Shown here piece by piece: positions 1-18,265 of a stretch of DNA of 28,361 nt. The stretch comes from a virus (lineage: Duplodnaviria; Heunggongvirae; Uroviricota; Caudoviricetes): IMG/VR virus record IMGVR_UViG_2698536339_000017. One strand, written 5' to 3'. Within the stretch, counting starts at the first letter, position 1. Every line of letters starts with the position of its first letter. A model generated the notes under the pieces. It was not told the origin of the DNA, ran no database searches, and was given only the letters and a program-made list of their open reading frames with translations. The position numbers and the translations under genes are program-made.

Positions 1-12
1 GGTTTGGGAGAA
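1..12 (-). other. Inner half of a Gin/Hin-type crossover site (site A); the window starts at the site centre so the outer half is not visible
   Basis: Bases 1-12 GGTTTGGGAGAA are the exact reverse complement of the half-site TTCTCCCAAACC found at 1890-1901 and 17570-17581. They encode G-L-G-E at the start of the alternative tail-fibre cassette. Confidence 0.6.
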
Positions 13-351
13 GCGGCTAAAAGAAATGTAGGGACAGGGGCGAATCAGATACCTGATATGGGTAGTTTTATGCTTTCTGCTTCAGTTCCTGGATATCAAA
101 AATTGCCATCCGGTTTAATTATTCAATGGGGGCCAATTGATGTTCCGCTGACGTCTCAGGACACAGTAACCTATTTTCCGATTGCATTTCCGAATAGATG
201 TCTGCGGGTATTTGCGACTCAGGATTACACTCCCGGCAGTGCAAATGTTGGCTATATAGCTTGTGCCGGTTATAACCAGGACCCGGTGAAATTTATTTCC
301 AGAGCAGGCGTACCCGGTATCGGTGCTTCATTTTTCGCATTAGGGTGTTAA
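1..351 (+). CDS. Alternative tail-fibre C-terminal cassette (Hv'), 5'-partial and promoterless in this orientation; would be fused to the constant part of H after segment inversion
   Basis: Open frame from base 1 ([13 protein letters not shown]...) to stop at 349-351. It begins with the same GLGE-encoding half-site as the variable part of H and is followed by its own tail-fibre assembly gene, as in Mu G-segment Sv'/U'. Confidence 0.65.
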
Positions 352-377
352 TTTCTTTTAACTTTATGGAGTGAAAA

Positions 378-818
378 ATGAATTACATATATTCCGCGAC
401 TACAAACTCTTTCTATCCCTTGGAGATGAAAGAGGATTACACGCAAGCTGACTCATGGCCAGATGATGCTGTTGAAGTTGATGAGCAAGTGTATATTGAG
501 TTTTCCGGATTACCGCCGAAAGGAAAAATCCGTATCGCTGGAGAAAATGGTTTTCCTGCATGGTCTGAAATTCCACCACCAACACATGAGGAACAGATTG
601 CTGCAGCCGAACTGAAAAAGCAGCAATTGATTAATCAGGCCAACGATTATATGAACAGTAAACAATGGGCTGGTAAAGCGGCTATTGGTCGTCTGAAAGG
701 TGAGGAACTGGCGCAATATAATTTGTGGCTGGATTATCTGGACGCACTGGAACTGGTCGATACTTCCGGTGCGCCAGATATTGAATGGCCTACGCCTCCG
801 GCAGTTCAGGCCAGATGA
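378..818 (+). CDS. Tail fibre assembly protein (Tfa'), partner of the alternative cassette
   Basis: 146 aa with C-terminal ...DIEWPTPPAVQAR motif typical of Tfa/U-type chaperones. Sits directly downstream of Hv'. Confidence 0.75.
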   Translation: MNYIYSATTNSFYPLEMKEDYTQADSWPDDAVEVDEQVYIEFSGLPPKGKIRIAGENGFPAWSEIPPPTHEEQIAAAELKKQQLINQANDYMNSKQWAGKAAIGRLKGEELAQYNLWLDYLDALELVDTSGAPDIEWPTPPAVQAR

Positions 819-1392
819 CATTCGGCGCGGTGCTGGTATCTGTTGCCGTCACCGCGTCAATGTAATCCAGCACAGCGTTAAGCTGGGTTGTTTCTGCCTG
901 CGTCAGTTTCCGTCCGGCCTGTAATTTCAGCTGAATCAGACTGATGGAAGCCATTGCAGCATCAATCAGTGACTGGCGCTGTGCTTCTGCCGCGTCTACT
1001 GCGGCGCTATGCTGTGCCTCAGTATCGGTTACCCATTTCTCACCATCCCATTTATCGTATGGAGATAAAGGGGCGATAGTGGTTGTATTTTCAGGGTAAT
1101 CACCCGGAGCTTTGATTTCTTTTGATTCTCCTGTTTCTGTGCTAAAGACGATTTCACCACGATGGTCTGGCACATATTCCCATGAGTTAAAATCTGCAGA
1201 ACGGCAGATTGCATACCCAGTTTTGTATGAGCCAGGAGCATCTAAACAGGAACATGCCGGAATGCCGACACCCACAGCAAGATATTCAGTTGATGTGAAA
1301 ATATATTCCCGTGTTTCACCATCATAGTTATAAACCGTAATATTTCCTGCTTGGGTGGCGATAAATTCGTTATTTAATACAGCGTAATCCAT
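790..1392 (-). CDS. G: Tail fibre assembly protein (P2 G-like Tfa)
   Basis: 200 aa, C-terminus ...NVIWPELPEA. Start codon overlaps the H stop (TAATG arrangement at 1390-1394). Position matches P2 G downstream of H. Confidence 0.8.
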   Translation of the reverse strand: MDYAVLNNEFIATQAGNITVYNYDGETREYIFTSTEYLAVGVGIPACSCLDAPGSYKTGYAICRSADFNSWEYVPDHRGEIVFSTETGESKEIKAPGDYPENTTTIAPLSPYDKWDGEKWVTDTEAQHSAAVDAAEAQRQSLIDAAMASISLIQLKLQAGRKLTQAETTQLNAVLDYIDAVTATDTSTAPNVIWPELPEA

Positions 1393-2951
1393 TATGCAGC
1401 CCTCACGATATACGCAAATGCCAGGTTCCGTGGTCTGGTTTCTTTAATTAAAGAGGAGGCATCAGGTGAACTCACTGATTCAGCACCATTTCTTCCACCA
1501 GTGGTATAAGTAAAAACTCGCTCACTGTTAGACCAGTAATCCACACCAACTGTTTTTGCTGATGAAAAAATGGTTTCATCAGATATAACCTGTTCTATTC
1601 CATACGGGATATTAGTAACTGACCCCACTTTTGTAGGTATTCCATGATTATGAGAAATTACTGCATGCTCTTGATTCGTTAATAAAGTACGACCGCTATC
1701 CACTCCACGCCCGTCATCCCAGCCACGAATAAACTCACCACGTAAATCAGGCAATTTATTTGTCGGATAAGCCTTTGCCAGCTCCGGGTATTCTTCAGCA
1801 GAAAAAGCGGCACCGTTGCATTTCAGCCAGCCTGTTGGCGGAGTGGCGGAAGGCCACGGAACAGGCACGCCAACGGGTAATGCCGAACCTTCTCCCAAAC
1901 CAAGGTATGCGAGAAGACCAGCTACATCCTTTCCACTCAAATTGGTAAGCGTATTGTCCAGCGGTTGTTTACCTGCCAGCGCATTAAGCATTGTCGTGGC
2001 AAAGTTCGGATCATTCCCCAGTGCCGCCGCCAGTTCGTTCAGTGTATCCAGTGCCGCAGGTGCAGAACCCACCATTGCTGCAATCGCTGATTTCACAAAA
2101 GCTGTAGTGGCAATCTGTGTATTGTTGACCGACTGTGCCGCAGTAGGTGCTGTTGGCGTTCCGGTGAGTGCCGGACTCGACAGTGGCGCTTTCAGTGCCA
2201 GCGCATTGTTAATGGTGGTACTGAATTTCGGATCATTGTTAATGGCTACGGCTATTTCTTTCAGCGTGTCCAGCGTGGCTGGCGCACCATTAATAAGAGC
2301 CGTCAGTGCCGCCTGAACAAACGCGGTGGTCGCAATCTGCGTGGTGTTATTCCCCTCCGCTGGCGTTGGCGCTTTGGGTGTTCCGGTCAATGTCGGGCTT
2401 TCTTTGGGTGCATACTGTGAATGCGGGTCCGGTGCGGCAAGATGTTTTGCCATCTTATCATCCACGAACACCTTCAGCTCCAGTACCTTGTCATCCACAT
2501 ACTTGCGGGTTGCCAGCACGACGGCAGGGTCGATTTTCAGGGTGATATTGTCCGTGCTGCTGGTAATCAGCACCATGCGCACGGTCTGGGTGCGCCCGCT
2601 GCCTTCAGCCAGTTGCGGCTTATAGCTTTCCGGGCAGTTGCCCACGGCAATTAATGCCCCTGACTCATCAAACAGGCCCACTTCACGGATCCACCAACCA
2701 CCCTCATTTTCAGGGATCACCTGTTCAGCAATAATCTGGCTGCTGTTCTGCGGGTCGATATAGAGCATATTCAGCGCAGCCCGGCGTTTCTCATTTACCA
2801 GTGCCGTCTGCTTTGCGTCCGGCGTCGGCAATGCTCCGCCGCCATCGCCCACCGCCATATGGGTAATTTTTAGCGGCACGCCGAGCGCGGCGGCGCTGGC
2901 AAGTTTCGCCGCGCCAATATCCGTCAGCAGGGTATAAAATTTTGTGCTCAT
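1392..2951 (-). CDS. H: Tail fibre protein H (constant N-terminal part plus invertible C-terminal receptor-binding part)
   Basis: 519 aa. N-terminus MSTKFYTLLTDIGAAKLA...MAVGDGGG matches the P2 H N-terminus. C-terminal region has a tail-collar-like motif (PTGWLKCNGAAFS...LPDLRGEFIRGW). Crossover site lies at the YLGLGE junction. Confidence 0.9.
   Translation of the reverse strand: MSTKFYTLLTDIGAAKLASAAALGVPLKITHMAVGDGGGALPTPDAKQTALVNEKRRAALNMLYIDPQNSSQIIAEQVIPENEGGWWIREVGLFDESGALIAVGNCPESYKPQLAEGSGRTQTVRMVLITSSTDNITLKIDPAVVLATRKYVDDKVLELKVFVDDKMAKHLAAPDPHSQYAPKESPTLTGTPKAPTPAEGNNTTQIATTAFVQAALTALINGAPATLDTLKEIAVAINNDPKFSTTINNALALKAPLSSPALTGTPTAPTAAQSVNNTQIATTAFVKSAIAAMVGSAPAALDTLNELAAALGNDPNFATTMLNALAGKQPLDNTLTNLSGKDVAGLLAYLGLGEGSALPVGVPVPWPSATPPTGWLKCNGAAFSAEEYPELAKAYPTNKLPDLRGEFIRGWDDGRGVDSGRTLLTNQEHAVISHNHGIPTKVGSVTNIPYGIEQVISDETIFSSAKTVGVDYWSNSERVFTYTTGGRNGAESVSSPDASSLIKETRPRNLAFAYIVRAA
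1890..1915 (+). other. Gin/Hin-type crossover site inside H (site B) at the constant/variable junction
   Basis: TTCTCCCAAACC-AA-GGTATGCGAGAA. Left half is identical to the half-sites at 1-12 (inverted) and 17570-17581. Fits the TTnTCnnAAACC half-site pattern of hix/gix/cix sites as I recall them. Encodes LLAYLGLGE on the minus strand. Confidence 0.65.
1959..2399 (-). repeat. Diverged tandem duplication inside H (two units of about 72 codons)
   Basis: Protein segments about 185-258 and 259-331 repeat the pattern LTGTP.APT...NNTQIATTAFV...GAPA.LDTL.E.A.A..NDP.F.TT..NALA.K.PL. Matching DNA periodicity is visible. Confidence 0.6.
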
Positions 2952-3553
2952 GGATTCACTCTCATTGTGTCAATAACATGGACCGCCCCGCCTTCATGCG
3001 CGGTGCCGCCGGAAATAATTGTTTCGTTGATATACGGATAGATCGTGATTTCTTCGCCAAGATAACTGGCGGCTCCCACCCAATGCGGGCCGCTGGTCTG
3101 CAGATTGATGGACATGCCGATCATGTGACGGCTACATGGTTTGGCATCGCTTATCAGTCGCTCAAGTTCCAGATAGGTATCTTCAGTGATGCCCTGGTCC
3201 TGCACACCAATGTCCAGACGAAACGTGCCCGGTGTTTCTCCGGTCTGCCACCACTCAATAATGCGGATCAGGAAGCCGAACGGCTCCACCACCCGCCGTA
3301 CGGCACTGGTGGTTCCTTTGTGCTGATGAATATAAAAAGCATCCTTCACTACCTGGCGTTTGACGCTTTCTGTCCAGCCCTCGTCCCAGCGATCCACAGA
3401 GAACGCCCAGGCGAGATAAGGCAGGAAACTGACCGGACAGGTTGCTGGATTCCACAAGTCACGCAGCGGCACCTGCAGATCAGAAATCCCGCTACAGGTC
3501 TGCGCCAGTCGGCGCTCCAGTGAAGTTGAACCCGGTGGCAGCAGACTATTCAT
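2948..3553 (-). CDS. I: Baseplate assembly protein I
   Basis: 201 aa; contains RDLWNPATCP...LPYLAWAFSVDRWDEGW, similar to P2 gpI. Overlaps J stop by 8 bp. Confidence 0.85.
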   Translation of the reverse strand: MNSLLPPGSTSLERRLAQTCSGISDLQVPLRDLWNPATCPVSFLPYLAWAFSVDRWDEGWTESVKRQVVKDAFYIHQHKGTTSAVRRVVEPFGFLIRIIEWWQTGETPGTFRLDIGVQDQGITEDTYLELERLISDAKPCSRHMIGMSINLQTSGPHWVGAASYLGEEITIYPYINETIISGGTAHEGGAVHVIDTMRVNP

Positions 3554-4454
3554 CCGTTCCTCCGTTGGTCACGCTCCACTGCGTACATGATGCCGCCTGC
3601 GTTTTGTTCAGAACCACATCCGCCAGCGGAGAAGCCAGTTCCACACGTTGAACACCCTCAACATGCAGCGCGGCAAAAATAGCACTACGGCGAATATCCC
3701 GACCGAGCCGCGTCTGACTGGCGATGTACCTCTGCAGGCTGACTTTTGCCGCTGCCATTACCGGCTCTGCTTCCGGTCCCGGATAAAGAAAAATGGTGGC
3801 TTCCACACGGTACGGGATGATTTCTGCGCTGCGAACCGTCAGACGGTCAGCCACCGGGCGGACATTCTCACTGTTCAGGGCTTTCTCCACCACATCCAGC
3901 AAATCTTTTTCTGCTGTTCCGTCGCCTTCACGGCTCAGGACAGTCAGCACCACCTCTGCAGGTGCCGGACTGGTTGCACTGGCATCCGCCACCCGACCGT
4001 CGGCGCTTCGGGCATGAAATTCATAAGCGGCAGTTGGCCCCGCAACAGAAAGCCCTTCAAAGGCTGCGGGCACACGCAGGCGTAACGCTTCATCGCTTTC
4101 CATCACAGCCGCAACGGGTGGCACAGCGTCATTATCAGCAGGCGTCACCGTCAGGCGTTTCACGTTGTAGTTGGCAGCGAGCTGGTCAAGATCGCCGCCC
4201 ATCGCGTAAGCCACCATCACCGCCTGCGCGGCTTCGTTAATGCGCTGGCGCAGAAGCAACTCACGGTAAGCGTTCTCCTGCAGCAATTTGGTGACGGGTT
4301 CAGATTCCAGTTCCAGCGTGCGGATCACTGCTTCCTGCTCATCTTTCGGATGAAGCGCCACAAATTCTGCCTTGCGTTCGGCAAGCAGCGTCTCAAAGTC
4401 CGGCACATCCACAATCTGCGGCGCAGGCAACTGCGAAAGGTCAATCACTGCCAT
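3546..4454 (-). CDS. J: Baseplate assembly protein J
   Basis: Similar to P2 gpJ. Start chosen at the internal Met (MAVIDLSQLPAP...) matching the P2 J N-terminus, rather than the longest ORF start at 4493. Confidence 0.8.
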   Translation of the reverse strand: MAVIDLSQLPAPQIVDVPDFETLLAERKAEFVALHPKDEQEAVIRTLELESEPVTKLLQENAYRELLLRQRINEAAQAVMVAYAMGGDLDQLAANYNVKRLTVTPADNDAVPPVAAVMESDEALRLRVPAAFEGLSVAGPTAAYEFHARSADGRVADASATSPAPAEVVLTVLSREGDGTAEKDLLDVVEKALNSENVRPVADRLTVRSAEIIPYRVEATIFLYPGPEAEPVMAAAKVSLQRYIASQTRLGRDIRRSAIFAALHVEGVQRVELASPLADVVLNKTQAASCTQWSVTNGGTDE

Positions 4455-4800
4455 TCTCTGCTCCTGTTGATACGGAAAGGGACACAGGCACACCGTTATT
4501 CCGCCGCCCGGTCAGCTCCACCACCATAGAACCGTCAAAGTTGCTGTTGATGGTGATGGAATCCAGCGTCAGCCGTGGCTCCCAGCGACTCAGCGCCACA
4601 TACACTGCCGACATGACCTGCAGGCGCAATGCCGGATTTTGTGGCTGGTCTATCAGCGCCGACAGCAGGGAACCATATTCCCGACGGGCAATGCGGCTAC
4701 CCTGTGGCGTCAGCAAAATGTCCCGCACCGACTGGCGCAGATGGTCCGTGTCTGTAATAGCTTTTCCGTTGCTCTGACTCATGCCGATATACAGCGTCAT
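4441..4800 (-). CDS. W: Baseplate protein W (gp25-like)
   Basis: 119 aa, MTLYIGMSQSNGKAITDTDHLRQSV..., similar to P2 gpW. Overlaps V stop. Confidence 0.85.
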   Translation of the reverse strand: MTLYIGMSQSNGKAITDTDHLRQSVRDILLTPQGSRIARREYGSLLSALIDQPQNPALRLQVMSAVYVALSRWEPRLTLDSITINSNFDGSMVVELTGRRNNGVPVSLSVSTGAENGSD

Positions 4801-5375
4801 ACCGGGCCTCCGGTTGTATCGCCGCCTTTCAGGACGCCAGTATGCTGATGCGCATCAACCACGATCCCGTTAGAACTCATCGCTCCGCCGCCCTGGGTAA
4901 CGCCACCATTGATCACCACTTCGCTGTTAATGCGCGTGCGGTCAGCCTCCAGTACAAACTCACTGGTTTTCATGGTGATGTTGTCAGCGGCCTCAATGAC
5001 CATTGATTTGATGCCCCTGACATACCAGCGCCCGGTGGCGGGTTCGTATTCAAACCAGCCACCGTCAGGATGTTCTGTCACGCAGGCGTCCGCCGACGTC
5101 GACGGTGGCGCGAACTGATTCGAATAGATGGCGGGTAACGCAAAGGCGGTTTCCAGATTGCCGCCCAGACTCAGCAGCACCACCTGCTCACCTTCCGATG
5201 GTCGCCACCATGTGCGGGCATTCCCGGCACGCAGCGTCAGCCAGCTGATCCAGTTGGTTTCAAGCTCGCCCGTTTTCACCCGGCAAAGCCAGTTTTCCCT
5301 GTCCACTTCGGTGACTACCCCTGTGCGGATCAGGTTGGTGATAAGGCGCATGATTTCGGTTAATTGTGCGTTCAT
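4797..5375 (-). CDS. V: Baseplate spike protein V
   Basis: 192 aa with MNAQLTEIMRL...WLTLRAGNARTWWRPSEGEQ, similar to P2 gpV. Confidence 0.85.
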   Translation of the reverse strand: MNAQLTEIMRLITNLIRTGVVTEVDRENWLCRVKTGELETNWISWLTLRAGNARTWWRPSEGEQVVLLSLGGNLETAFALPAIYSNQFAPPSTSADACVTEHPDGGWFEYEPATGRWYVRGIKSMVIEAADNITMKTSEFVLEADRTRINSEVVINGGVTQGGGAMSSNGIVVDAHQHTGVLKGGDTTGGPV

Positions 5376-5421
5376 AGGGAAAGGTTGCCATCAGGGGAAG
5401 AAAGGCGGCAGTGCTGCAACT

Positions 5422-5439
5422 TGTATCAGTGCTGATACA
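5422..5439 (-). promoter_or_regulatory. Palindromic TGT-N12-ACA element upstream of V (candidate Ogr-type late promoter box)
   Basis: TGTATCAGTGCTGATACA in the 68-bp S-V intergenic region fits the TGT-N12-ACA pattern of P2 late promoters. It lies only about 47 bp from the V start codon, so spacing is atypical. Confidence 0.3.
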
Positions 5440-5443
5440 AAGA

Positions 5444-5890
5444 TCACCCCGCCAGCCATTGCAGAATCATGTCGCGGGTCATTGCCTCAACATCATCATT
5501 TACACCCAGCAGGCGGCGCTCTGCGTAACGGACCTCCGGTCCTTTGCGACTGACGCGATCACGCAGGCCGTAATGGTGAACACGGGCAATACGCTGCACC
5601 TTGCCTTCAAACTGTACACTGGCAGAGTCGGCGCTGGCGGCAGTTTTCAGGTATTTTGTGGTGCGCAGCTTTGCAAACATCTGACGTTTGATGCGCCCTT
5701 TCTTGCTGCGTGCTGTTACCCTGCGCGGTTCATAACTGCTGCCATCTGGATTGCGCTGCATCCTGATATTCTGCTGCTGTGTCCGGCGCAGTTCCTGCGC
5801 CAGCTGGCGCATCATGCGGCTTCTCGTGGCTGGTTCCAGATTCGCCAGCAAGGCACTCAGCCAGTCGTCCACCTTCTGCAGTTCAGCCAC
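5444..5890 (-). CDS. S: Tail completion protein S
   Basis: 148 aa, similar to P2 gpS (virion morphogenesis). Position between R and V. Confidence 0.8.
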   Translation of the reverse strand: MAELQKVDDWLSALLANLEPATRSRMMRQLAQELRRTQQQNIRMQRNPDGSSYEPRRVTARSKKGRIKRQMFAKLRTTKYLKTAASADSASVQFEGKVQRIARVHHYGLRDRVSRKGPEVRYAERRLLGVNDDVEAMTRDMILQWLAG

Positions 5891-6335
5891 GTTTCACCGT
5901 CCACATTTCTTCAGGTTCATCGGGTTCTGCTACAGCTTCAACGCTCGACACACTGCCGTCAGTGCTGACCAGCACACGTTCCGTCAGTTGCAGATTAAGG
6001 CTGATATCACAGACATCGTTGCGCAAAATATCCACCTCAAAGGTGAATAGCTTTTCCCGTAACGCCGGGTTATTGATGGCATCGGGCTGGTTATCCCGAA
6101 GCCACAGTAAAACCGGGGCCATCAGCAGATTCTGGTCGCCGCTGAAATCCTCTATCACCACGTTCAGGGTATAGCGGTACTCCCATGACATGGAGCTGGC
6201 CCCCGTGGCAACCAGCGAACCGTTATCCACAAACAGATGCAGTTTGTCCGGGTTATTGCGGACATAAGGCACCGCTTTATTGAGGGCGTGGCGCAGGGAT
6301 TGTGGTTTGTTCACTGTTTCGCTCCTGACACGCAA
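5883..6335 (-). CDS. R: Tail completion protein R
   Basis: 150 aa with ...HLFVDNGS...EYRYTLNVVIEDFSGD...LLWLRDNQPD, similar to P2 gpR. Confidence 0.8.
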   Translation of the reverse strand: MRVRSETVNKPQSLRHALNKAVPYVRNNPDKLHLFVDNGSLVATGASSMSWEYRYTLNVVIEDFSGDQNLLMAPVLLWLRDNQPDAINNPALREKLFTFEVDILRNDVCDISLNLQLTERVLVSTDGSVSSVEAVAEPDEPEEMWTVKRG

Positions 6336-6567
6336 TAATCATGTCCACTTTGTCTGCACAGACCGCCCAGGCGGCCTCCGTTTCATCCAGCAACGCATTC
6401 AGATCACCGTTAGTGCGCGGTGCTGCCTGCTCCAGCCGACACGGCGTCACTCGCGGACAACCACTGACGGTAAGCTGCACCTCCGGTGAGTGCCGGACGT
6501 TCCCGCAGCCGGATAATGTCAGCAGGCAAAGGAGTATCAGCCCAGTGGCGTAAATCCTCGTTCTCAC
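6277..6567 (-). CDS. lysC: Rz1-like outer-membrane lipoprotein spanin (LysC-like), starting inside lysB in another frame and extending into R
   Basis: N-terminal signal peptide with lipobox (LLCLLTLSGC). Embedded/overlapping arrangement as described for P2 lysC. Confidence 0.55.
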   Translation of the reverse strand: MRTRIYATGLILLCLLTLSGCGNVRHSPEVQLTVSGCPRVTPCRLEQAAPRTNGDLNALLDETEAAWAVCADKVDMIIACQERNSEQTTIPAPRPQ

Positions 6568-6838
6568 GTTTCAGTTCCTCGATCCGGCGTTGTCGTTGTC
6601 TCAGCTGTGCGCTGGTCTGTTCTGCTTCGGCATAGAGCCGCGCCTGCTCCCGGTTATTGGTTTCAGTCAGAATGGACAGGCTGATAAGCTGGCTGTTGCT
6701 CTTTGCCAGTGCCTGGCTTTTGCTCTGCAGCTCGTTTGCCTGCGTGCTGATGGTCTGGCTGGCATCAGCCAGCCGCCACGTCTGCCAGCCCAGCGCCGCC
6801 AGTAATAACGCCAGCACAACCAGCAGCAACCGGTTCAT
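6410..6838 (-). CDS. lysB: Rz-like inner-membrane spanin (LysB)
   Basis: 142 aa with N-terminal TM helix then a coiled-coil-like region (QANELQSKSQALAKSNSQL...RQRQRRIEELKRENEDLRHW). Confidence 0.7.
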   Translation of the reverse strand: MNRLLLVVLALLLAALGWQTWRLADASQTISTQANELQSKSQALAKSNSQLISLSILTETNNREQARLYAEAEQTSAQLRQRQRRIEELKRENEDLRHWADTPLPADIIRLRERPALTGGAAYRQWLSASDAVSAGAGSTAH

Positions 6839-7212
6839 GCGGCTACCTGTTGCGCCATCTGATTACGGGTGATCCAGAAGGCAATAACGGTCAGTAGATA
6901 AAAGACCAGGGTAATAGCCCACCCCGTCCATGCGAGACTTACAACAATCAGCAATCGCATCACCCAACTGATAAATACGTTTTCTTTTCGGGTAATTGTC
7001 TTCAGCAAAGATGCCCTTAACTCCTGCCAGAGCGGGCCATTCTGAATTAACGCAGCCAGTGCTACCGGAATTACCGCCCATGTCAGCAAACAGGCTACCC
7101 AAACGCCGGACGCTGCCAGTACCGGAAAGATCCCCTGCGGATACACCATTGCTGCGATTAACAGCGCCATCCATAACATCAGAAACAGTCCGCTGATTAA
7201 TTTCTTTTTCAT
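6835..7212 (-). CDS. lysA: LysA-like membrane protein (lysis timing)
   Basis: Multi-TM hydrophobic protein. Start set at the MKKKLISG Met, which follows the endolysin stop; the longest ORF starts at 7284. Confidence 0.55.
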   Translation of the reverse strand: MKKKLISGLFLMLWMALLIAAMVYPQGIFPVLAASGVWVACLLTWAVIPVALAALIQNGPLWQELRASLLKTITRKENVFISWVMRLLIVVSLAWTGWAITLVFYLLTVIAFWITRNQMAQQVAA

Positions 7213-7213
7213 T

Positions 7214-7726
7214 TCAGTTTGCTCCCTGTAAACACCAGGCCATCTCCCGCGCACGGCGGTTATCCAGCCCCTGATTAAACACACCTTTCACATAAACCCA
7301 GCGCGGCAACTGTCGGCACGCATCCGCCCAGCGCCGCTGATTGAGTAATTTCACCAGCGTGGAACTGCAGGCATTGCCCGTCCCCACGTTGAAGGCAAAC
7401 GACACCGTAGCGTCATACACCTTCTGCGGCGGCTGTTGCTTCACACACCTTTCCAGCGCCCGCTCCACACGTAGCACGTTGGAGATCAGCCCTTCTGCTG
7501 CCTGTCGTTCCGTAATAGTTTTGCCGGGAATGACGCCCGACGTATTACCAATGCCGTCGGTCCAGACACCCGCGCTGCACTGATACGGCTGCAGACGACA
7601 GCCTTCGTAATCGGCAATCAGTTTCAGCCCCTCCACGGAGGTGTGAAGTTGCTGAAACCCCGGCAGCGTGGCAGCAATAGCCAGCACGGCCCCGACAAGG
7701 CAGCGTTTAACGATTGATGGATTCAT
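7214..7726 (-). CDS. Endolysin, T4-lysozyme-like with an N-terminal signal-anchor-release (SAR) type segment
   Basis: 170 aa. N-terminal weakly hydrophobic Gly/Ala-rich segment (VKRCLVGAVLAIAATLPG) followed by ...LIADYEGCRLQPY...GVWTDGIGNT..., resembling the phage 21 R-type SAR endolysin. Confidence 0.75.
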   Translation of the reverse strand: MNPSIVKRCLVGAVLAIAATLPGFQQLHTSVEGLKLIADYEGCRLQPYQCSAGVWTDGIGNTSGVIPGKTITERQAAEGLISNVLRVERALERCVKQQPPQKVYDATVSFAFNVGTGNACSSTLVKLLNQRRWADACRQLPRWVYVKGVFNQGLDNRRAREMAWCLQGAN

Positions 7727-7922
7727 AGTCCTCCCGCGAGATCTGCCCGTCGCGCAGAAGCTGGTAGGCTTTGTGTTTGTAGTACCAGTTGATAGCCAGC
7801 ATCAGCACACCAATCATCAGGCCACCCAGCGTTGAGGCATCCTTGATGGACAAATCGCCCAGCCAGGCCAGCACAACGGCGATGCAATACGTGATAAAGG
7901 CGCTGATTCGCTCAAGCGTCAT
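7707..7922 (-). CDS. Small two-TM holin (pinholin-like)
   Basis: 71 aa with two hydrophobic segments and a charged C-terminus. Sits immediately upstream of the SAR-type endolysin. Confidence 0.6.
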   Translation of the reverse strand: MTLERISAFITYCIAVVLAWLGDLSIKDASTLGGLMIGVLMLAINWYYKHKAYQLLRDGQISREDYESINR

Positions 7923-7925
7923 AAT

Positions 7926-8129
7926 TCAGTCCCATAGCTGGACGGTCTGCACGGTGGTGGTGGTCGGAATGTCCGGCAGCTCCACCTGCAGCCCGTGAGG
8001 TAAAAAAGGGCCAAATTCGGCAAGCCCCGGATTTGCCTTCAGTACCTGCTCCGTGACACCCTGCGTGCGCCCGTAATGACGCCAGCAAAGCGCGTCCACC
8101 GTGTCATACTGATGCGCACGCACTTTCAT
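7926..8129 (-). CDS. X: Tail protein X
   Basis: 67 aa, MKVRAHQYDTVDALCWRHYGRTQGVTEQVLKANPGLAEFGPFLPHG..., similar to P2 gpX. Confidence 0.85.
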   Translation of the reverse strand: MKVRAHQYDTVDALCWRHYGRTQGVTEQVLKANPGLAEFGPFLPHGLQVELPDIPTTTTVQTVQLWD

Positions 8130-8593
8130 CAGATAAGCTCCACTGTGCAGTGCGGCGCATCCTGTACCCGGCAGATGGCCCAGCGGGCGTCACGCCACAA
8201 ATCACCGCTGGCTTCTGCCAGTTCCTCGCCCCGCTTCACACCGGATGCCGTGGCGTCATAGTCCTGGTAACGTTCGTTGAGCATGGCGCGAGCCCAGCAG
8301 TAAACCGCGTTGAAATAGTGCTGAATTCGCTCGCTTTTCCCGTCCAGCTGTTCCGCCGGAACCTCTGCCAGCGAGGCATATCCCAGCATCTGCTGGCGTC
8401 TGCGAAACTCATACAGCTCTGCGTTGACCTCCGAAATTGCCGACAGCGCAACCTGCTTTAAACGCGGCTGCGTCACCGTGCCGTCAGTGCGCATCACACT
8501 GCGAAACTCCGACAGGTCCACATCAGGCCAGAACGGCGTATTTCTGATGATTTCCGCCTGTTCCGGTGCCTGTTCTGGCGCAACAAACTTCAT
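8129..8593 (-). CDS. L: Head completion/stabilisation protein L
   Basis: Similar to P2 gpL. Start set at MKFVAPEQ (8593), which has an AGGAG-type RBS upstream; the longest ORF extends to 8656. Confidence 0.75.
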   Translation of the reverse strand: MKFVAPEQAPEQAEIIRNTPFWPDVDLSEFRSVMRTDGTVTQPRLKQVALSAISEVNAELYEFRRRQQMLGYASLAEVPAEQLDGKSERIQHYFNAVYCWARAMLNERYQDYDATASGVKRGEELAEASGDLWRDARWAICRVQDAPHCTVELI

Positions 8594-8688
8594 GCTGCTT
8601 TCTCCTGAAATAGAGGGCGGTGGACGGGGTTTTGATGTGGCAGTGCCTTTCGCCACCCCGTGCCGCCCGTGCGCGGGGGCACGTTCTG

Positions 8689-9339
8689 TCAGCGGCTGTC
8701 ATTGCGCAGTCTGCGCTCCAGCTGCTGTTTGTCTTTTTTCACGCCACAGCGGGGATCGAGCTGCAACGCATGGTTGAGATGATTAAGGGCGGAAGCCGGA
8801 TTGCTTTCACTCAGGACAGCGCCAATCGCTTTATGCAGACGCGCCCGTGACTGGTCCGGCATATCCAGACCGTCTGTCAGCTCCAGCGTCTGCAACAACA
8901 GATCGGCATCAAAGCCGGTGGCGGCAAGCATTGCGCTCTGCGCGGCGTCTGACATTTCCTCTGCCAGCACGGTCTGCACATTGCGGTTACCCAGTGGCAT
9001 CACCCAGCCATGACGTAGGGCATGACGCCCGATCTCCAGCGCCCCGGCATAATCTCCGGCATCAATGCGCCACAGCATCACGTACATCAGCACGTCATCC
9101 TGTTGAGTGCCTCCGGCAGCCAGGACACCCTCTGCCCAGGCAGCGTATTTCGGCAGCAGCTCCACCTTGATTTCCGCTTTTTTGACCGTGGACTGAACGC
9201 CCTTGAGACGGCGGCGGTCTTCCGCCAGTTGCAGCAGCATCAGGTCATAGCCCGACGCGTGGCGAACACTGCCGCCCTCGCGGGCGGCCTGTTCAGCCTG
9301 AACGCGCAGGCGATGCTGCCGTGCGGGACTCAGGCTCAT
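8689..9339 (-). CDS. M: Terminase endonuclease (small) subunit M
   Basis: 216 aa with ...DDVLMYVMLWRIDAGDYAGALEIGRHALRHGWVMP..., similar to P2 gpM. Confidence 0.85.
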   Translation of the reverse strand: MSLSPARQHRLRVQAEQAAREGGSVRHASGYDLMLLQLAEDRRRLKGVQSTVKKAEIKVELLPKYAAWAEGVLAAGGTQQDDVLMYVMLWRIDAGDYAGALEIGRHALRHGWVMPLGNRNVQTVLAEEMSDAAQSAMLAATGFDADLLLQTLELTDGLDMPDQSRARLHKAIGAVLSESNPASALNHLNHALQLDPRCGVKKDKQQLERRLRNDSR

Positions 9340-9342
9340 GAA

Positions 9343-10401
9343 TTACGCTCCGGTTTCTGCTGCGGCGGCGCTGAAGTCGCCAATCTGGATGTTTTCCACC
9401 AGTGCGGCACAGCGGTAGTCCTCAACCACATAGGCTTCGTTAACGGATTCAAAGTTTTCAATCCGGTCACGTTTCGGGTTGTCGATAACTGAACGGCGGC
9501 GGGTGTCTTCCTGCCAGTAGATGGACAGGTTATCCAGACGGGTAATCAGCAGTGCATTCGGCGGGAAGAACGGCGCACGCACGGCCTGCAGGCCCCCCAT
9601 GCGTTTCTGGCTGATGATCATATCGGCAGCCAGTTTTTCACTGTTTTCCTGCTCTTTGTTGACCAGCGGGAAATACTTGTCAGACAGCAGTTCACGACCG
9701 CAAATCACCACCAGATCGTCATCGTCCTGGTAGACCACGTCGATAAGCTCATTGACGGCATCCATCACCACGGCGTCCAGGTTGGCATATTCGCCACCTT
9801 TCCCGACTTTCACTGCGCCCGGTGTGGTTTCACCGCCCGTGGTGGTGCTGCCCATGACGTGATCCGGTGCATCCTCACGGATTTTCTGCAGCCAGCCTTT
9901 ATTCACATCCTGCAGTAGCGGGTTTTCGCTACGGTTGGAGGTTTTCGCACGCTTCACGCCGTTAAAGCCGATCATGATGCGGTCCAGTGCCTGACGTTTC
10001 ACGATGGCGTCACGGATACGCACCTGAAAATCCTGAAACTTCGCCCACAGGTCCAGCTTCGCGTAGGTCAGCACCGTGTCAAAGTTGGTCTGCTCGCATT
10101 TATATTCCACATCGACCATCAGCGTCGGATCGACAGGTTCACGCTCTTTCGCGGTGGTATCAGTGGTTCCGGCAATGGTGCTGCCAACTCCCAACCCCAG
10201 CAGCTGACCGGACTGCTCAGTCACTGGCGTGACGTTAATCAGCGTCAGGAAAGCGGCGGACTGCTGGATCTGGTCTTCCAATGTCTGCTGCACGGACGGC
10301 TCTACGGTGAACTTGCTGGACAGTTCTTCAACTGCCACACCGTTCAGACGCGCCAGCTGCTGCAGGTAAGCGTTAAAAGCCAAGCGGGTATTCTTCTTCA
10401 T
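9343..10401 (-). CDS. N: Major capsid protein N
   Basis: 352 aa, similar to P2 gpN across its length. Confidence 0.9.
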   Translation of the reverse strand: MKKNTRLAFNAYLQQLARLNGVAVEELSSKFTVEPSVQQTLEDQIQQSAAFLTLINVTPVTEQSGQLLGLGVGSTIAGTTDTTAKEREPVDPTLMVDVEYKCEQTNFDTVLTYAKLDLWAKFQDFQVRIRDAIVKRQALDRIMIGFNGVKRAKTSNRSENPLLQDVNKGWLQKIREDAPDHVMGSTTTGGETTPGAVKVGKGGEYANLDAVVMDAVNELIDVVYQDDDDLVVICGRELLSDKYFPLVNKEQENSEKLAADMIISQKRMGGLQAVRAPFFPPNALLITRLDNLSIYWQEDTRRRSVIDNPKRDRIENFESVNEAYVVEDYRCAALVENIQIGDFSAAAAETGA

Positions 10402-10417
10402 CGGGTTTTGTGCTCCA

Positions 10418-11251
10418 TCAGCAATTGGTCAGAGTGTCAGCGGGGGCGTTACCGCCTGTTGCACGCTGGCGGTAGTCCTGGCGGCTGTCTTCATGACTCA
10501 GCTTATTCACCAGTTCGTTAAAGGCGGTCTGCTGTGCCTGCAGGGCAGTCTCCAGCTCAGACAGACGTTCTTCCTGCTCAGACAGGGATTTTTCGGTCCG
10601 TGCGCTCAGGTTCTGCTGCTCAGTGGCGACCAGCTCCACGGCCTTATGCACATCAGAGAACCGGGCATCGTCGGACTGCTCTTTTTTGGTGAACAGCGCC
10701 GTGACGCGGGCAAACAGGGACGGCTTGTCCTCCTGGATTTCTTCCAGTTCGATCACCGTTTCCTCTGCGGCGGTAAAGAGATTGGCGGGATTCTGCTTGC
10801 GGTTTGCCAGCGGGTTATGGGCTGCACTGGCGCTGAATGTCAGCATTTCAGTGCCCAGACTGGCAGGGTCATCAGTGGCAGCCAGCCCGACCAGGTAGGC
10901 TTTGCCCGTATCAGCAAACTTTGGGCTGACTTCCATAGAGGTGAATAATTTCTGGCCTTTTTTCACCAGATCCACCAGGGACTCTGTTGGCTCAACGTCG
11001 GCATACAGCGCCATCTTGCCTGCCAGCGGACCTTCCGTGATTTCTTCAGCAAACAGCGCCGTCACCTTGCCGTAGCGGTTAAAGGTGCTGTCCGGCAGAT
11101 AAGACTTGATGTGCTCAAGGTTAATCAGCGCGGTATACACCGCCGGGTTGTAGCTGGCTGCCATCTGTTCCAGCCATTCACGCTGGATTTCGCGTCCGTC
11201 GGTGGTGGCACCTTCCACCCCGATGCGAAAACGCTTTGCTTTCACTGTCAT
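10418..11251 (-). CDS. O: Capsid scaffolding protein O
   Basis: 277 aa; position and composition (acidic coiled-coil C-terminal part) match P2 gpO. Confidence 0.8.
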   Translation of the reverse strand: MTVKAKRFRIGVEGATTDGREIQREWLEQMAASYNPAVYTALINLEHIKSYLPDSTFNRYGKVTALFAEEITEGPLAGKMALYADVEPTESLVDLVKKGQKLFTSMEVSPKFADTGKAYLVGLAATDDPASLGTEMLTFSASAAHNPLANRKQNPANLFTAAEETVIELEEIQEDKPSLFARVTALFTKKEQSDDARFSDVHKAVELVATEQQNLSARTEKSLSEQEERLSELETALQAQQTAFNELVNKLSHEDSRQDYRQRATGGNAPADTLTNC

Positions 11252-11329
11252 GAGCCGTGCTCCGTTAGAAAAAACTTACTGGAGCCTTATGGTTGCGGTG
11301 ATGGGGGCAGTGAAACAATGCGCGGTATT

Positions 11330-11347
11330 TGTACCGACAACCACACA
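11330..11347. promoter_or_regulatory. TGT-N12-ACA Ogr-type late promoter box in the divergent P/O intergenic region
   Basis: TGTACCGACAACCACACA. Centre is about 87 bp from the O start codon, compatible with a -55 activator site plus about 30-nt leader for the O operon. No second clean box for P was found. Confidence 0.45.
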
Positions 11348-11393
11348 AACCGCAGGCGGGGAAAGCCTTCATTCAAGGCTGTAGGTTTGTGCC

Positions 11394-13160
11394 ATGAACA
11401 CCACACTGACACCCGCAGATCTCGATCCCCGTCGGCAGGCCATGCTGCTGTACTTTCAGGGATACCGCGTAGCCCGCATTGCTGAAATGCTGGGCGAGAA
11501 AGTTGCAACCGTTCACAGCTGGAAAAAACGCGACAAGTGGGGTGACTATGGGCCGCTGGATCAGATGCAGCTCACCACCGCCGCACGTTACTGCCAGCTC
11601 ATTATGAAGGAGCACAAAGAAGGGAAAGATTTCAAAGAAATTGATCTGCTGGCGCGCCAGTCGGAGCGCCACGCGCGGATCGGCAAGTTTAACAATGGCG
11701 GCAACGAAGCCGATTTAAACCCTAACGTCGCCAACCGCAACAAAGGCCCGCGCCGTCAGCCTGAAAAGAATGTTTTCACCGATGAACAGATTGAGAAGCT
11801 GGAAGAAATCTTCCATTCCTCCATGTTCAACTACCAGCGTCACTGGTGGGAAGCCGGAAAAACCAACCGCATCCGCAACCTGCTGAAGTCACGCCAGATC
11901 GGCGCGACCTTCTATTTTGCCCGTGAAGCCCTGATTGACGCCCTGCTAACCGGACGTAACCAGATTTTCCTTTCTGCCAGTAAGGCACAGGCGCACGTCT
12001 TTAAGCAGTACATCATCGACTTCGCCAAAGAAGTGGAAGTGGAGCTGAAAGGCGATCCGATGGTGCTTCCCAACGGGGCCACACTGTATTTCCTCGGCAC
12101 CAATGCCCGCACTGCCCAGAGTTACCACGGCAACCTGTATCTGGATGAATATTTCTGGATACCGAAATTCCAGGAGCTGCGCAAAGTGGCTTCCGGTATG
12201 GCTATTCACAAAAAATGGCGACAAACCTATTTTTCCACGCCATCCAGCCTGACCCACAGTGCTTATCCGTTCTGGTCCGGTGCGCTGTTCAACCGTGGAC
12301 GCAACAAAGCCGACAAGGTGGACATCGACCTGTCCCACAGCAATCTGGCCCCCGGCCTGCTGTGCGCAGACGGGCAATACCGCCAGATAGTCACCGTAGA
12401 AGATGCGGTGCGCGGCGGCTGTAACCTGTTCGACCTTGACCAGTTGCGCATGGAATACAGCCCGGACGAATACCAGAACCTGCTGATGTGTGAGTTCGTG
12501 GACGATCTCGCGTCCGTGTTCCCGCTCAGCGAGCTGCAGGCGTGCATGGTGGACAGTTGGGAAGTCTGGACCGACTTTCATGCACTGGCCCTGCGCCCGT
12601 TTGGCTGGCGCGAAGTGTGGATCGGTTATGACCCGGCAAAAGGTACGCAGAACGGCGACAGCGCCGGATGCGTGGTGGTGGCACCGCCAGCCGTGCCGGG
12701 CGGTAAGTTCCGCATTCTTGAGCGTCACCAGTGGCGCGGGATGGACTTCCGCGCCCAGGCTGATGCAATCAAAAAACTGACCGAGCAGTACAACGTGACC
12801 TACATCGGCATCGACTCGACAGGTGTCGGCCACGGGGTTTACGAGAACGTGAAAGCGTTTTTTCCAGCCGTCCGGGAGTTTGTCTACAACCCCAACGTTA
12901 AAAACGCCCTGGTACTCAAGGCCTACGACATTATCAGTCACCGTCGTCTGGAGTTTGACGCCGGACACACCGACATAGCGCAGTCATTTATGGCAATCCG
13001 TCGCGCCACCACCGCCAGCGGCAACCGCCCAACCTATGAAGCCAGCCGCAGCGAAGAAGCCAGCCATGCCGATCTGGCCTGGGCAACAATGCACGCACTG
13101 TTTAACGAACCGCTGCAGGGCGAGTCCGCCAATACCAGCAATATTGTGGAGATTTTTTGA
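11394..13160 (+). CDS. P: Terminase ATPase (large) subunit P
   Basis: 588 aa, similar to P2 gpP. Divergent from O as in P2. Confidence 0.9.
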   Translation: MNTTLTPADLDPRRQAMLLYFQGYRVARIAEMLGEKVATVHSWKKRDKWGDYGPLDQMQLTTAARYCQLIMKEHKEGKDFKEIDLLARQSERHARIGKFNNGGNEADLNPNVANRNKGPRRQPEKNVFTDEQIEKLEEIFHSSMFNYQRHWWEAGKTNRIRNLLKSRQIGATFYFAREALIDALLTGRNQIFLSASKAQAHVFKQYIIDFAKEVEVELKGDPMVLPNGATLYFLGTNARTAQSYHGNLYLDEYFWIPKFQELRKVASGMAIHKKWRQTYFSTPSSLTHSAYPFWSGALFNRGRNKADKVDIDLSHSNLAPGLLCADGQYRQIVTVEDAVRGGCNLFDLDQLRMEYSPDEYQNLLMCEFVDDLASVFPLSELQACMVDSWEVWTDFHALALRPFGWREVWIGYDPAKGTQNGDSAGCVVVAPPAVPGGKFRILERHQWRGMDFRAQADAIKKLTEQYNVTYIGIDSTGVGHGVYENVKAFFPAVREFVYNPNVKNALVLKAYDIISHRRLEFDAGHTDIAQSFMAIRRATTASGNRPTYEASRSEEASHADLAWATMHALFNEPLQGESANTSNIVEIF

Positions 13161-14185: not shown

Positions 14186-14191
14186 CAAAGT

Positions 14192-14206
14192 GCCTCTAAA
14201 AGAGGC
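14192..14206. terminator. Short hairpin between convergent Q and DprA-like gene stops (possible bidirectional terminator)
   Basis: GCCTCT-aaa-AGAGGC inverted repeat in the 24-bp gap. Stem is short, so termination efficiency is uncertain. Confidence 0.3.
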
Positions 14207-14209
14207 GCT

Positions 14210-15749: not shown

Positions 15750-15879
15750 TCTTTATTCTCATGTAGTCCTAACTCAAACAATGTTAAGCGAAATGATATT
15801 TCATAGACAAACACAAATTTAAGAATAATCTCAATGATCACATTTTTGATTATGAAACAAAGCCAAGAGTTAGCGCGCG

Positions 15880-16277: not shown

Positions 16278-16559
16278 ATGAACAATATTCCCCCTATACC
16301 ACAGTTAGGAATTTATGTCTCAAAAATCGATCCCACCCTACGTATCACTGTAACCGATGTTGATATTGTTGATGGTGAGGATGATTCTCCTGATGATGAA
16401 TTGTTTTATTTAGTCCACTGGATCGAGGGGGAAGATGAAAGTGATATGACAGCAATGGGATTTGAGCTAGACCCAGTAGAGTGGCAGGCTTTCGTTGAAT
16501 CTGAGCAATTAGTGTTTGAGCGTGATGATCCTACCCACGTAATATGGACACAGGCCTAA
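16278..16559 (+). CDS. Small, very acidic protein of unknown function; native 3' end replaced by IS3 terminal sequence
   Basis: Good RBS (AAAAGGAG) 6 bp upstream of ATG. About 82 native codons with roughly 29 percent Asp/Glu. The last 11 codons (PTHVIWTQA and stop) are encoded by the IS3 terminal inverted repeat starting at 16526. Confidence 0.5.
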
Positions 16560-17422
16560 GCGAGGTTCTTGTTTTCAAATTGTTCCGGACTGAGGCCGCC
16601 ACACCAACTGTGCCGCCGCCACCGATTGTAATCACATTCGATATAATTAAACACCGTTGCCCGCATTATTTCCCGGCTGATAAAGTGTTCTCCATGGATA
16701 CATTCCACTTTCAGCGAATGAAAGAAGCTTTCCACGCAGGCATTATCGTAGCAGCAACCTTTTGCGCTCATACTTCCACGCAGATTATGCCGCTTCAGTT
16801 GCGCCTGATAATCTGCTGAACAGTACTGGCCTCCACGGTCCGTGTGAACGATAACGTTCCGGGGCCTCTTACGCCGCCACAGCGCCATCTGCAGGGCATC
16901 GCAGGCCAGTTGCGCCGTCATGCGTGGCGACATTGACCAGCCAATAACGGCACGTGACCACAGGTCAATGACCACTGCCAGATACAGCCAGCCTTCATCT
17001 GTACGTAAGTACGTGATGTCTCCTGCCCACTTCTGGTTCGGGCCACTGGCGTAAAAATCCTGCTCCAACAGATTTTCTGACACAGGCAGGCCGTGTGCGC
17101 GGTAGCTGACCGGGCTGAACTTCCGGGAGGCCTTTGCCCTCAGTCCCTGACGGCGCAGGCTTGCCGCCACGGTTTTTACGTTAAAGGGGTAACCCTGAGC
17201 ACGCAGTTCATCCGTCAGGCGTGGGGCACCGTAACGCTGTTTTGACCGGGTAAAAGCCGCGAGGACAACGCTGTCGCAGTGTTGGCGGAACTGCTGACGC
17301 GTGCTTATCCTTGTCCGCCGCTGACACCACGTATACCAGCCGCTGCGGGCCACCCGGAGCACGCGGCACATTGCTTTGATGCTGAACTCAGCCTGATGTT
17401 TTTCAATAAAGACATACTTCAT
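16556..17422 (-). CDS. insF: IS3 transposase orfB (InsF-type, DDE integrase domain)
   Basis: 288 aa; sequence recognised as IS3 orfB. Normally expressed as an OrfAB frameshift fusion, which the truncated orfA here cannot provide. Confidence 0.85.
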
Positions 17423-17567
17423 TTCAGGCGCTTCGCGAAGTATGTCGCGGCCTTTTGGAGGATAGCCAGCTCTTCATCCCGTTCTGCCAGCTGGCGTTTG
17501 AGACGTGCAATCTCGGTAGACATCTCCAGTTCACGTTCAGAAGACGTCTGCTGATTTTGCTGTTTAC
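17419..17567 (-). pseudogene. insE: IS3 orfA (InsE-type) remnant, N-terminally truncated
   Basis: Encodes only the C-terminal part ...[48 protein letters not shown]; HTH-containing N-terminus and promoter absent. Confidence 0.75.
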
Positions 17568-17569
17568 AC

Positions 17570-17595
17570 TTCTCCCAAACCAACGTTTATGAAAA
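17570..17595 (+). other. Gin/Hin-type crossover site adjacent to the invertase gene (site C)
   Basis: TTCTCCCAAACC-AA-CGTTTATGAAAA; about 20 of 26 positions match hixL (TTCTTGAAAACCAAGGTTTTTGATAA) as I recall it. Left half identical to the tail-fibre half-sites. Lies 55 bp upstream of the invertase start. Confidence 0.65.
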
Positions 17596-17650
17596 TGCAG
17601 AGATAACGGCTAACTGGCATCATCTCCGGTTTTTATTCAGGAGGATGATC

Positions 17651-18217
17651 ATGCTTATTGGCTATGTACGCGTGTCAACAAATGACCAGAACACCGATTT
17701 GCAACGCAATGCACTGAACTGTGCGGGATGTGAGCGGATTTTTGAGGATAAAATCAGTGGCACCAAGTCCGACAGACCGGGGCTGAAAAAGCTGCTCAGG
17801 ACACTATCGGCAGGAGACACGCTGGTTGTCTGGAAGCTGGACAGACTGGGGCGCAGTATGCGGCATCTTGTTACGCTGATAGAAGAGCTGCGCCAGCGTG
17901 GCGTGAATTTCCGAAGCCTGACTGACAGTATTGATACCAGCACCCCAATGGGCCGTTTCTTTTTTCATGTCATGGGTGCCCTGGCTGAAATGGAACGCGA
18001 ACTGATAGTTGAACGTACCAGGGCGGGGCTGGCTGCAGCTCGTGCTAAAGGCAGAGTAGGTGGACGCCGTCCTAAGTTGACCAGCGAACAGTGGGCACAG
18101 ATTGGGCGTTTACTCGAGGCCGGAGAATCAAGACAGCGTATTGCACTGATTTTTGATGTAGGCGTTTCTACCATTTATCGAAAATTTCCGGCAAATAAGA
18201 ACAATAAATCTCCCTGA
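17651..18217 (+). CDS. Serine recombinase DNA invertase, Gin/Pin/Cin/Hin family
   Basis: MLIGYVRVSTNDQNTDLQRNAL... with catalytic Ser in VRVST and a C-terminal HTH (GVSTIYRKF). Near-identical in motif content to Mu Gin as I recall it. RBS AGGAGG upstream; an in-frame ATG at 17645 is an alternative start. Confidence 0.9.
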   Translation: MLIGYVRVSTNDQNTDLQRNALNCAGCERIFEDKISGTKSDRPGLKKLLRTLSAGDTLVVWKLDRLGRSMRHLVTLIEELRQRGVNFRSLTDSIDTSTPMGRFFFHVMGALAEMERELIVERTRAGLAAARAKGRVGGRRPKLTSEQWAQIGRLLEAGESRQRIALIFDVGVSTIYRKFPANKNNKSP

Positions 18218-18265
18218 ATCAGCTTTATTTTGATTATCCCTGAAAGCAGACAAATACCGTCATTT

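Follow-up and report, generated by a model that had tools for sequence, protein, structure and literature searches.

Tail-fibre inversion of the Pin, Gin and Cin type is textbook knowledge. The Din-family enzymes are small serine recombinases of ~185-195 aa with an active-site Ser9/10 and a C-terminal HTH, and their 26-bp sites pair two 12-bp half-sites of imperfect symmetry across a 2-bp core, with partner sites having the same core. In the usual layout two inverted sites bound the segment and the invertase gene lies just outside it, while a recombinational enhancer bound by Fis is usually located in the 5' part of the invertase gene. Sites in direct repeat are normally not used by the wild-type invertases.

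In the e14 P segment of E. coli K-12 (invertase PinE), inversion between the repeats TTGGTTTGGGAGAAGG has been shown experimentally (PMC12529663). Phase variation by inversion has also been shown experimentally in the P2-like prophages of EPEC E2348/69, where coexisting orientations were found by sequencing and PCR (Goldberg et al. 2014, PMC4272514). We propose that positions 1-1915 of the window, by which we mean the whole stretch of DNA analysed (28,361 nucleotides, bases 3-28363 of NCBI contig CYEZ01000004.1, assembly GCA_001285445.1), are very probably a Pin (Din-family) invertible tail-fibre switch of a P2/186-like E. coli prophage, judging from the sequence features listed below. In E. 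coli the prophage sits between rcdA and ybjL, and judged by the genes and Pfam domains present in the contig and in identical complete genomes it has the P2 late-gene set (Q, P, O, N, M, L, X, lysis genes, R, S, V, W, J, I, H, G, FI, FII, E, T, U, D and ogr) that marks the P2-like phages (Peduoviridae). The late-gene order is rearranged in the contig.

1..13, no strand: second crossover site, inner half only (GGTTTGGGAGAA plus G; the TT core precedes it in the contig)
1..351, plus strand: Hv' cassette, the silent alternative C-terminus of H (116 codons from GLGE; Gp53-like_C domain)
378..818, plus strand: Tfa', the tail-fibre assembly chaperone going with Hv' (Caudo_TAP domain)
790..1392, minus strand: Tfa, the tail-fibre assembly chaperone going with Hv and equivalent to P2 G (Caudo_TAP domain; in the expressed orientation here)
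1392..1889, minus strand: Hv, the variable C-terminal part of H now fused to the constant part (Collar domain)
1890..1915, no strand: pixL-type 26-bp crossover site (TTCTCCCAAACC AA GGTATGCGAGAA), inside H at the YLGLGE codons
1916..2951, minus strand: constant N-terminal part of H (Phage_tail_fib N-terminal domain)
16526..17567, minus strand: truncated IS3 with an anomalous junction; it retains the right inverted repeat, stops inside orfA and lacks ~217 bp at the left end
17570..17595, no strand: complete crossover site identical to e14 pixR (TTCTCCCAAACC AA CGTTTATGAAAA), in direct orientation relative to 1890-1915 as deposited
17651..18217, plus strand: Pin-like small serine DNA invertase, 188 aa (Resolvase and HTH_7 domains, Ser9)

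The e14 P segment and the present locus have in common an identical pixR, an identical inner half-site and AA core, the inverted repeat TTGGTTTGGGAGAAG and a segment of ~1.8-1.9 kb with two opposed tail-fibre C-termini and a tfa gene for each, and the present invertase is 87% identical to the annotated PinE. They differ in that the host element here, a P2/186-like prophage, has its late region intact, whereas e14 is defective, in that the constant part here is P2 H-like, and in that the outer half of the H-internal site departs from that of e14 pixL at 3/12 positions (GGTTTTCGAGAG in e14, GGTATGCGAGAA here). The architecture Sc, Sv-U / U'-S'v, invertase is that of Mu (G, Gin) and P1 (C, Cin), as are the 26-bp site design and the enzyme family (75% identity to Mu Gin), but in Mu the gix core is GA instead of AA, the segment is about 3 kb and the cassette sequences are different. 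The EPEC loci belong to the same phage family and use the same mechanism, although one of them has three repeats and four variants, against two sites and two variants for the present locus in its canonical form. The Min multiple-inversion system of plasmid p15B is also of the Din family and has related sites (mix, TTCCCCCAAACC AA ...) in its tail-fibre genes, but it has six sites and many cassettes, compared with only two cassettes here. In the R64-type shufflon (Rci), too, DNA inversion changes the C-terminus that an adhesin-like protein carries, but it does so with a tyrosine recombinase and 19-bp sfx sites; since the present locus has 26-bp sites of the Din type and a small serine invertase, it falls outside the shufflon family. 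The switch is already known and of an ordinary, well-described kind, with nothing biologically new: the present segment is already annotated in complete genomes and inversion has already been shown in P2-like E. coli prophages.

Crossover sites, invertase and fibre fusions

The sites can be read directly from the DNA. Window 1-13 (GGTTTGGGAGAAG) is 100% complementary to 1889-1901, giving an exact 13-nt inverted repeat that the leading TT core of the contig extends to a 15-nt perfect inverted repeat against 1889-1903. The 12-mer TTCTCCCAAACC occurs exactly three times in the 28,361 bases (1-12 on the minus strand, 1890-1901 and 17570-17581), compared with a chance expectation for exact matches of about 0.003 by simple arithmetic. 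When the whole window was scanned with the published Din (dix) consensus, which has 15 specified positions, at least 13/15 were matched at two sites only, 1890 and 17570, each of which scored 14/15; shuffling the bases produced 0.38 sites on average even with the threshold relaxed to 12. Site 17570-17595 has exactly the published pixR sequence, and 1890-1915 has an inner half and an AA core identical to those of both pixL and pixR (Table 3 of PMC3241671). The core dinucleotide is common to the partners, being AA at 1902-1903 and 17582-17583 and its complement, TT, at the start of the contig. The site at 1890-1915 lies within the 519-aa ORF of H (1392..2951, minus strand), at the boundary between ...AYLGLGE and GSALP. 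The initial annotation had placed a crossover site inside H at YLGLGE and the inner half of a second one at the window start, and both assignments agree with these data. It had expected the outer half of the second site upstream of base 1. The contig supplies the TT core there, but as deposited it has the outer half-site and the invertase at 17584-18217, a non-canonical place, instead of upstream. The left end of the segment is represented in the contig by half-site and core only. The complete third site (17570-17595) and the invertase gene (17651-18217) had not been part of that annotation.

The family of the enzyme is equally a matter of direct observation, as it is a small serine recombinase with an N-terminal catalytic domain and a C-terminal HTH. 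Its residues 1-183 align with the Gin structures 3UJ3 (E = 1e-92) and 4M6F, and Ser9 is conserved.

The cassettes, assigned by their Pfam domains, have the arrangement that had been described for them, with Hv-Tfa on the minus strand and Tfa'-Hv' on the plus strand as in the Mu G segment, so that the two Caudo_TAP genes are opposed within the segment. The two variable C-termini had been called unrelated, and indeed no similarity between Hv and Hv' was found by BLASTP (E = 0.98). Tfa and Tfa' have only the C-terminal ~70 residues in common, at 38% identity. H is open in both states, with 519 aa as found and a computed 466 aa in frame after a flip. The locus therefore has what defines a host-range cassette of the Mu S/U type, namely a crossover inside the fibre ORF, alternative C-termini in frame and a chaperone for each.

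Both fusion states were observed directly in complete E. coli genomes with the same constant H, the unflipped Hv fusion being contiguous in 14 and the flipped junction, Hconst-TT-Hv', in 34, with the junctions at the core. In strain TO6 the flipped fusion is annotated as a 466-aa H, with Hv adjoining the invertase. Together with the pix-matching sites, the invertase and the in-frame flip, this bears out the earlier reading of the region as a Mu-G-like invertible segment with two alternative cassettes. The canonical arrangement, with inverted sites and an adjacent invertase, is found in complete genomes that match at 100% identity throughout the stretches compared; in AMSHJX01 and AR_0017, both 100% identical to window 1-2000, the genes D..FI, invertase, pixR, Hv', Tfa', Tfa and H follow in direct succession.

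In the mechanism we propose, the 188-aa serine invertase would bind the two inverted 26-bp pix sites and both would be cut at the AA core with a 2-nt stagger, after which one pair of half-sites would be rotated by 180 degrees and religated. Since one site lies inside H at the YLGLGE codons, each flip would exchange the receptor-binding C-terminus of H, a 165-residue collar-domain end replacing a 112-residue gp53-like end or the reverse, and would simultaneously put the matching chaperone gene (Tfa or Tfa') into the transcribed orientation. Switching would presumably change the host range. We infer the recombination chemistry and the dependence on Fis and an enhancer from what is established for Gin, Hin and Pin.

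The contig edge and the IS3 junction

The window starts at the crossover because its source contig, CYEZ01000004.1, begins with TT followed by GGTTTGGGAGAAG, the TT being the crossover core. It had been suggested that the contig was broken here, and this is indeed a real contig edge; a contig edge or an N-gap occurs at the same base in 9/9 of the other public places returned. Furthermore, in 345/375 index blocks holding the edge-truncated product, no carrier contig exceeds 2 kb. The contig begins at the outer edge of the 15-nt perfect inverted repeat, the point at which two upstream contexts for the segment would make a de Bruijn graph branch. The practical value of these observations is methodological: such switches have a reproducible signature in assemblies, namely contigs that start or stop exactly at TTGGTTTGGGAGAAG, and since draft contigs near the switches can contain wrong joins, prophage gene order taken from drafts needs care.

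The second irregularity of the contig is the placement of the invertase. The truncated IS3 sits in a hypothetical gene, at an insertion point that is found nowhere else, and abuts the pixR site via one extra A. Joined to this IS3, the invertase and pixR lie 17.6 kb from the segment and are inverted relative to the two complete genomes whose compared stretches are 100% identical. In the deposited sequence 15.7 kb separate pixL (1890) from pixR (17570), and the two are direct repeats. A correct assembly would mean a disabled switch, barring a further outer half-site upstream of where the contig begins. Recombination by Pin with a quasi-site in IS3 was considered as the origin of the 17568/17569 junction and rejected, as 13 nt lie between the junction and the core, native IS3 shows complete divergence at the junction and no position in IS3 reaches 10/15 on the Din consensus. 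Homologous inversion between two IS3 copies is insufficient, since it would leave complete IS3 copies and the copy here ends inside orfA. An adjacency of IS3 and pinE in other genomes proved on inspection to be an unrelated arrangement.

That the inverted repeat arose by chance, with the opposed cassettes a non-switching fossil of an old duplication, is extremely improbable: the short length of the repeat would fit such an origin and nothing else would, whereas the exact identity to published pix sites, the cognate invertase encoded in the window and the occurrence of both recombinant states in complete genomes, joined precisely at the core, all stand against it, and the comparative data refute it. 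A far more serious alternative, although still an unlikely one, concerns the contig edge, which could stem from a second near-identical Hv'-Tfa' copy in another prophage of the genome instead of a mixture of orientations. Such copies do occur, since the cassette pair is found in strain 11PC at 99.8% identity, in a prophage that is of another type and has another constant part, and at 93% on a 102-kb plasmid, and two places in AMSHJX01 match window 1-2000. The contig also passes pixL unbroken, and pure mixing of orientations should cause a branch at both ends. However, the 345/375 blocks with the product solely on contigs of <2 kb are what would be expected of a 1.9-kb segment bounded by branches at both sites, and inversion mixtures have been documented experimentally for such loci.

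For the invertase and pixR behind IS3, we think that a mis-join during scaffolding or gap closing is the rather likelier explanation than a real rearrangement. If the deposited order were nevertheless real, which seems doubtful, a 17.6-kb block (window 1-17568) comprising the invertible segment, H, the baseplate, lysis and head genes, ShosTA and part of IS3 would have been inverted relative to the block of invertase, FI and D, with breakpoints at the pixR site and inside IS3. Nearly the whole late region would then be inverted, pixL and pixR would be left as direct repeats and the tail fibre would probably be locked in the H-Hv form. This would be either a natural case of an IS-associated illegitimate rearrangement that has disabled or rewired a tail-fibre switch or, given a further site upstream of the contig, a much larger invertible unit. 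Consistent with a real inversion, the contig reads continuously through IS3'-A-pixR, both flanks are 99.99-100% identical to AMSHJX01 with their relative order inverted, and most assemblers do not make junctions without some read support. Against it, the junction lies at the inner edge of the 13-nt repeat with a stray A, off the AA core, and is therefore not a product of Pin, nor does IS3 contain a Din-like quasi-site. A 13-15-nt repeat is present at both ends (1-13 and 17569-17581), which a conservative inversion cannot yield, and both ends coincide exactly with branch points of the assembly graph. No match spanning the IS3'-pixR junction was found among 5,426 complete E. coli genomes, GTDB genome contigs and metagenome contigs. 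Finally, IS3 occurs in seven places in the near-identical AMSHJX01, so that a short-read contig running across 1 kb of IS3 implies gap filling.

Fibre cassettes and their crossover sites

Four genes and one gene fragment lie within positions 1-2951 of the window, including the following:

1..351, plus strand: open frame of 116 codons entering at base 1 (Hv'), with a Gp53-like_C domain
378..818, plus strand: chaperone of 146 aa (Tfa'), Caudo_TAP
790..1392, minus strand: assembly chaperone of 200 aa (Tfa) following H, Caudo_TAP
1392..2951, minus strand: tail-fibre gene H, 519 aa, with Phage_tail_fib N-terminal and Collar domains

The open frames and domains bear out the opposed layout described in the initial annotation, with Hv-Tfa on the minus strand and Tfa'-Hv' on the plus strand. 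The variable ends Hv and Hv' were, as also claimed there, without relationship (BLASTP E = 0.98), and the 38% identity between Tfa and Tfa' is confined to the C-terminal ~70 residues.

The crossover site proposed at 1890-1915, within H at the codons for ...AYLGLGE, reads TTCTCCCAAACC AA GGTATGCGAGAA. When the window was scanned with the published Din consensus, two full sites only were returned, this one and a complete site at 17570-17595, each matching 14 of the 15 specified positions; base shuffles averaged 0.38 sites when the threshold was relaxed to 12. The window start is indeed the inner half-site of the second site, positions 1-13 being the exact reverse complement of 1889-1901, and core plus 13 nt make up a perfect inverted repeat of 15 nt. 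Exactly three copies of the 12-mer TTCTCCCAAACC occur in the window, at 1-12 (minus strand), 1890 and 17570, and the chance expectation for exact matches is, by arithmetic, ~0.003. The observation of an invertible fibre segment was thus correct in every detail and its interpretation is supported; what it missed were the complete 17570-17595 site and a 188-aa invertase, both inside the window:

17570-17595: complete site TTCTCCCAAACC AA CGTTTATGAAAA, from the Din consensus scan
17651..18217: small serine recombinase of 188 aa with Resolvase and HTH_7 domains, starting 55 bp downstream of that site

The invertase and the two orientations of the segment

The invertase aligned end to end with the structures of Mu Gin (3UJ3, E = 1e-92, 75% identity, Ser9 conserved) and is 87% identical to an annotated PinE. 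Since the 17570 site is identical to pixR (TTCTCCCAAACC AA CGTTTATGAAAA; Table 3, PMC3241671) and the site in H has the inner half and core of pixL (TTCTCCCAAACC AA GGTTTTCGAGAG; Table 3, PMC3241671), differing from it at 3 of 12 outer-half positions, the system belongs to the Din family and is of the Pin type. It is of a known kind, in a known phage family, and complete genomes already carry annotations of this very sequence.

Two complete genomes, AMSHJX01 (NZ_CP030939.1) and AR_0017 (NZ_CP024886.1), match window 1-2000 at 100% identity and have the uninterrupted order ogr, D..FI, invertase, pixR, Hv', Tfa', Tfa, H, I. The unflipped junction, which is the state of the window, is unbroken in 14 complete genomes. 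The modelled post-flip junction (constant H, TT, Hv') predicts an in-frame H of 466 aa, and this junction is unbroken in 34 complete E. coli genomes, the top matches having 96-98% identity. The annotation of strain TO6 shows the flipped H as a tail protein of 466 aa with Tfa' after it; on the opposite strand Tfa and Hv adjoin the invertase, the junctions being exactly b_out-TT-GGTTTGGGAGAAG, where b_out is the outer half of the in-H site, and ...CCAAACC-AA-CGTTTATGAAAA. Hv also adjoins the invertase in four draft contigs (L009, L010, L012 and L018). Inversion has been demonstrated experimentally in EPEC P2-like prophages, with coexisting orientations (PMC4272514), and in the e14 P segment, between repeats TTGGTTTGGGAGAAGG (PMC12529663).

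The invertase-side inner half-site of the flipped TO6 prophage (5860-5885) has, in place of TTCTCCCAAACC, the ..TCCCCCAAACC of the p15B mix sites, which means that partner sites need not match in the inner half. The Hv'/Tfa'/Tfa/Hv pair was also found at 3501-5414 of a locus in strain 11PC (NZ_CM137005.1), in a prophage with a Mu/e14-like baseplate and a differing constant fibre part, and at 93% identity on a 102-kb plasmid (NZ_CP127299.1), which carries Hv' as a fusion to a long fibre gene. The cassette module evidently moves between phage families via exchange at crossover sites.

Contig start and deposited gene order

Base 1 of the window is base 3 of CYEZ01000004.1 (231 kb; NCBI assembly GCA_001285445.1), whose opening bases, TTGGTTTGGGAGAAG, start with the TT core; the first gene of the window is edge-truncated. 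With two upstream contexts at the Hv' end, k-mers from the outer base of the repeat would be shared and those reaching one base further out would not, and the segment contig would then begin exactly at TT. Given two such contexts, we infer that branching of the de Bruijn graph would explain the contig start. The 116-aa product of the truncated gene was returned from ten places, each in a different assembly, and in all ten a contig edge or N-gap directly precedes TTGGTTTGGGAGAAG. It is present in 375 index blocks, in 345 of which the longest carrying contig is <2 kb, about the size of the invertible segment. This recurrent pattern supports, for such loci in general, the assembly break that the initial annotation had envisaged. 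The same break would result from a second cassette copy in another prophage of the genome, and a pair 99.8% identical does occur in a different prophage type in strain 11PC.

Against the canonical AMSHJX01 sequence, window 1-16526 aligns as the reverse complement (99.994% identity) and 17569-28361 in forward orientation (100%). Between them lies one element:

~16526 (right inverted repeat) to 17567 (inside orfA): truncated IS3, lacking ~217 bp at its left end

Its right inverted repeat is inserted in a hypothetical gene of the prophage, labelled DUF8087 in the precomputed annotation of the contig, and the 93-aa ORF at 16278-16559 is this gene with its 3' end replaced by the IS3 right end, a fusion protein found in one public contig only, CYEZ01000004.1. 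Position 17567 is followed by a single extra A and then by the complete pixR, CTTCTCCCAAACC AA CGTTTATGAAAA; the 13-nt repeat has its inner edge precisely at this join. As deposited, the 17.6-kb block at 1-17568 is therefore inverted relative to the invertase-FI-FII-E-T-U-D-ogr part, and the pixL-type site and pixR are direct repeats.

A product of Pin was rejected as the origin of this junction, since the join misses the core and coincides instead with the repeat's inner edge, the 13-nt repeat occurs at both block ends, and IS3 is without a Din-like site. The IS3-pixR junction was not found in 5,426 complete genomes, metagenome contigs or GTDB contigs, and both block ends fall on assembly-graph branch points. 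Furthermore, IS3 is multi-copy in the near-identical strain AMSHJX01, so that a short-read contig crossing 1 kb of IS3 was probably gap-filled. For these reasons we favour a mis-join as the probable, though by no means certain, source of the odd order; that the block was really turned around by an illegitimate inversion appears rather unlikely.

Cargo genes and host flank

On the minus strand at 14210-15749, two cargo genes adjoin the portal gene. One encodes a DprA-like protein with a DNA_processg_A domain (PADLOC ShosA, E = 3e-70) and the other a protein of 191 aa with a match to ShosT (E = 4e-14); judged by these matches, the pair forms an anti-phage toxin-antitoxin system of the ShosTA type, located in the variable hotspot usual for P2. 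The host genes ybjL, ybjM and grxA occupy 25742-28361 on the ogr side of the prophage, which in AMSHJX01 lies between rcdA and ybjL. The window ends at the ATG of grxA, which indicates that it was cut at gene boundaries.
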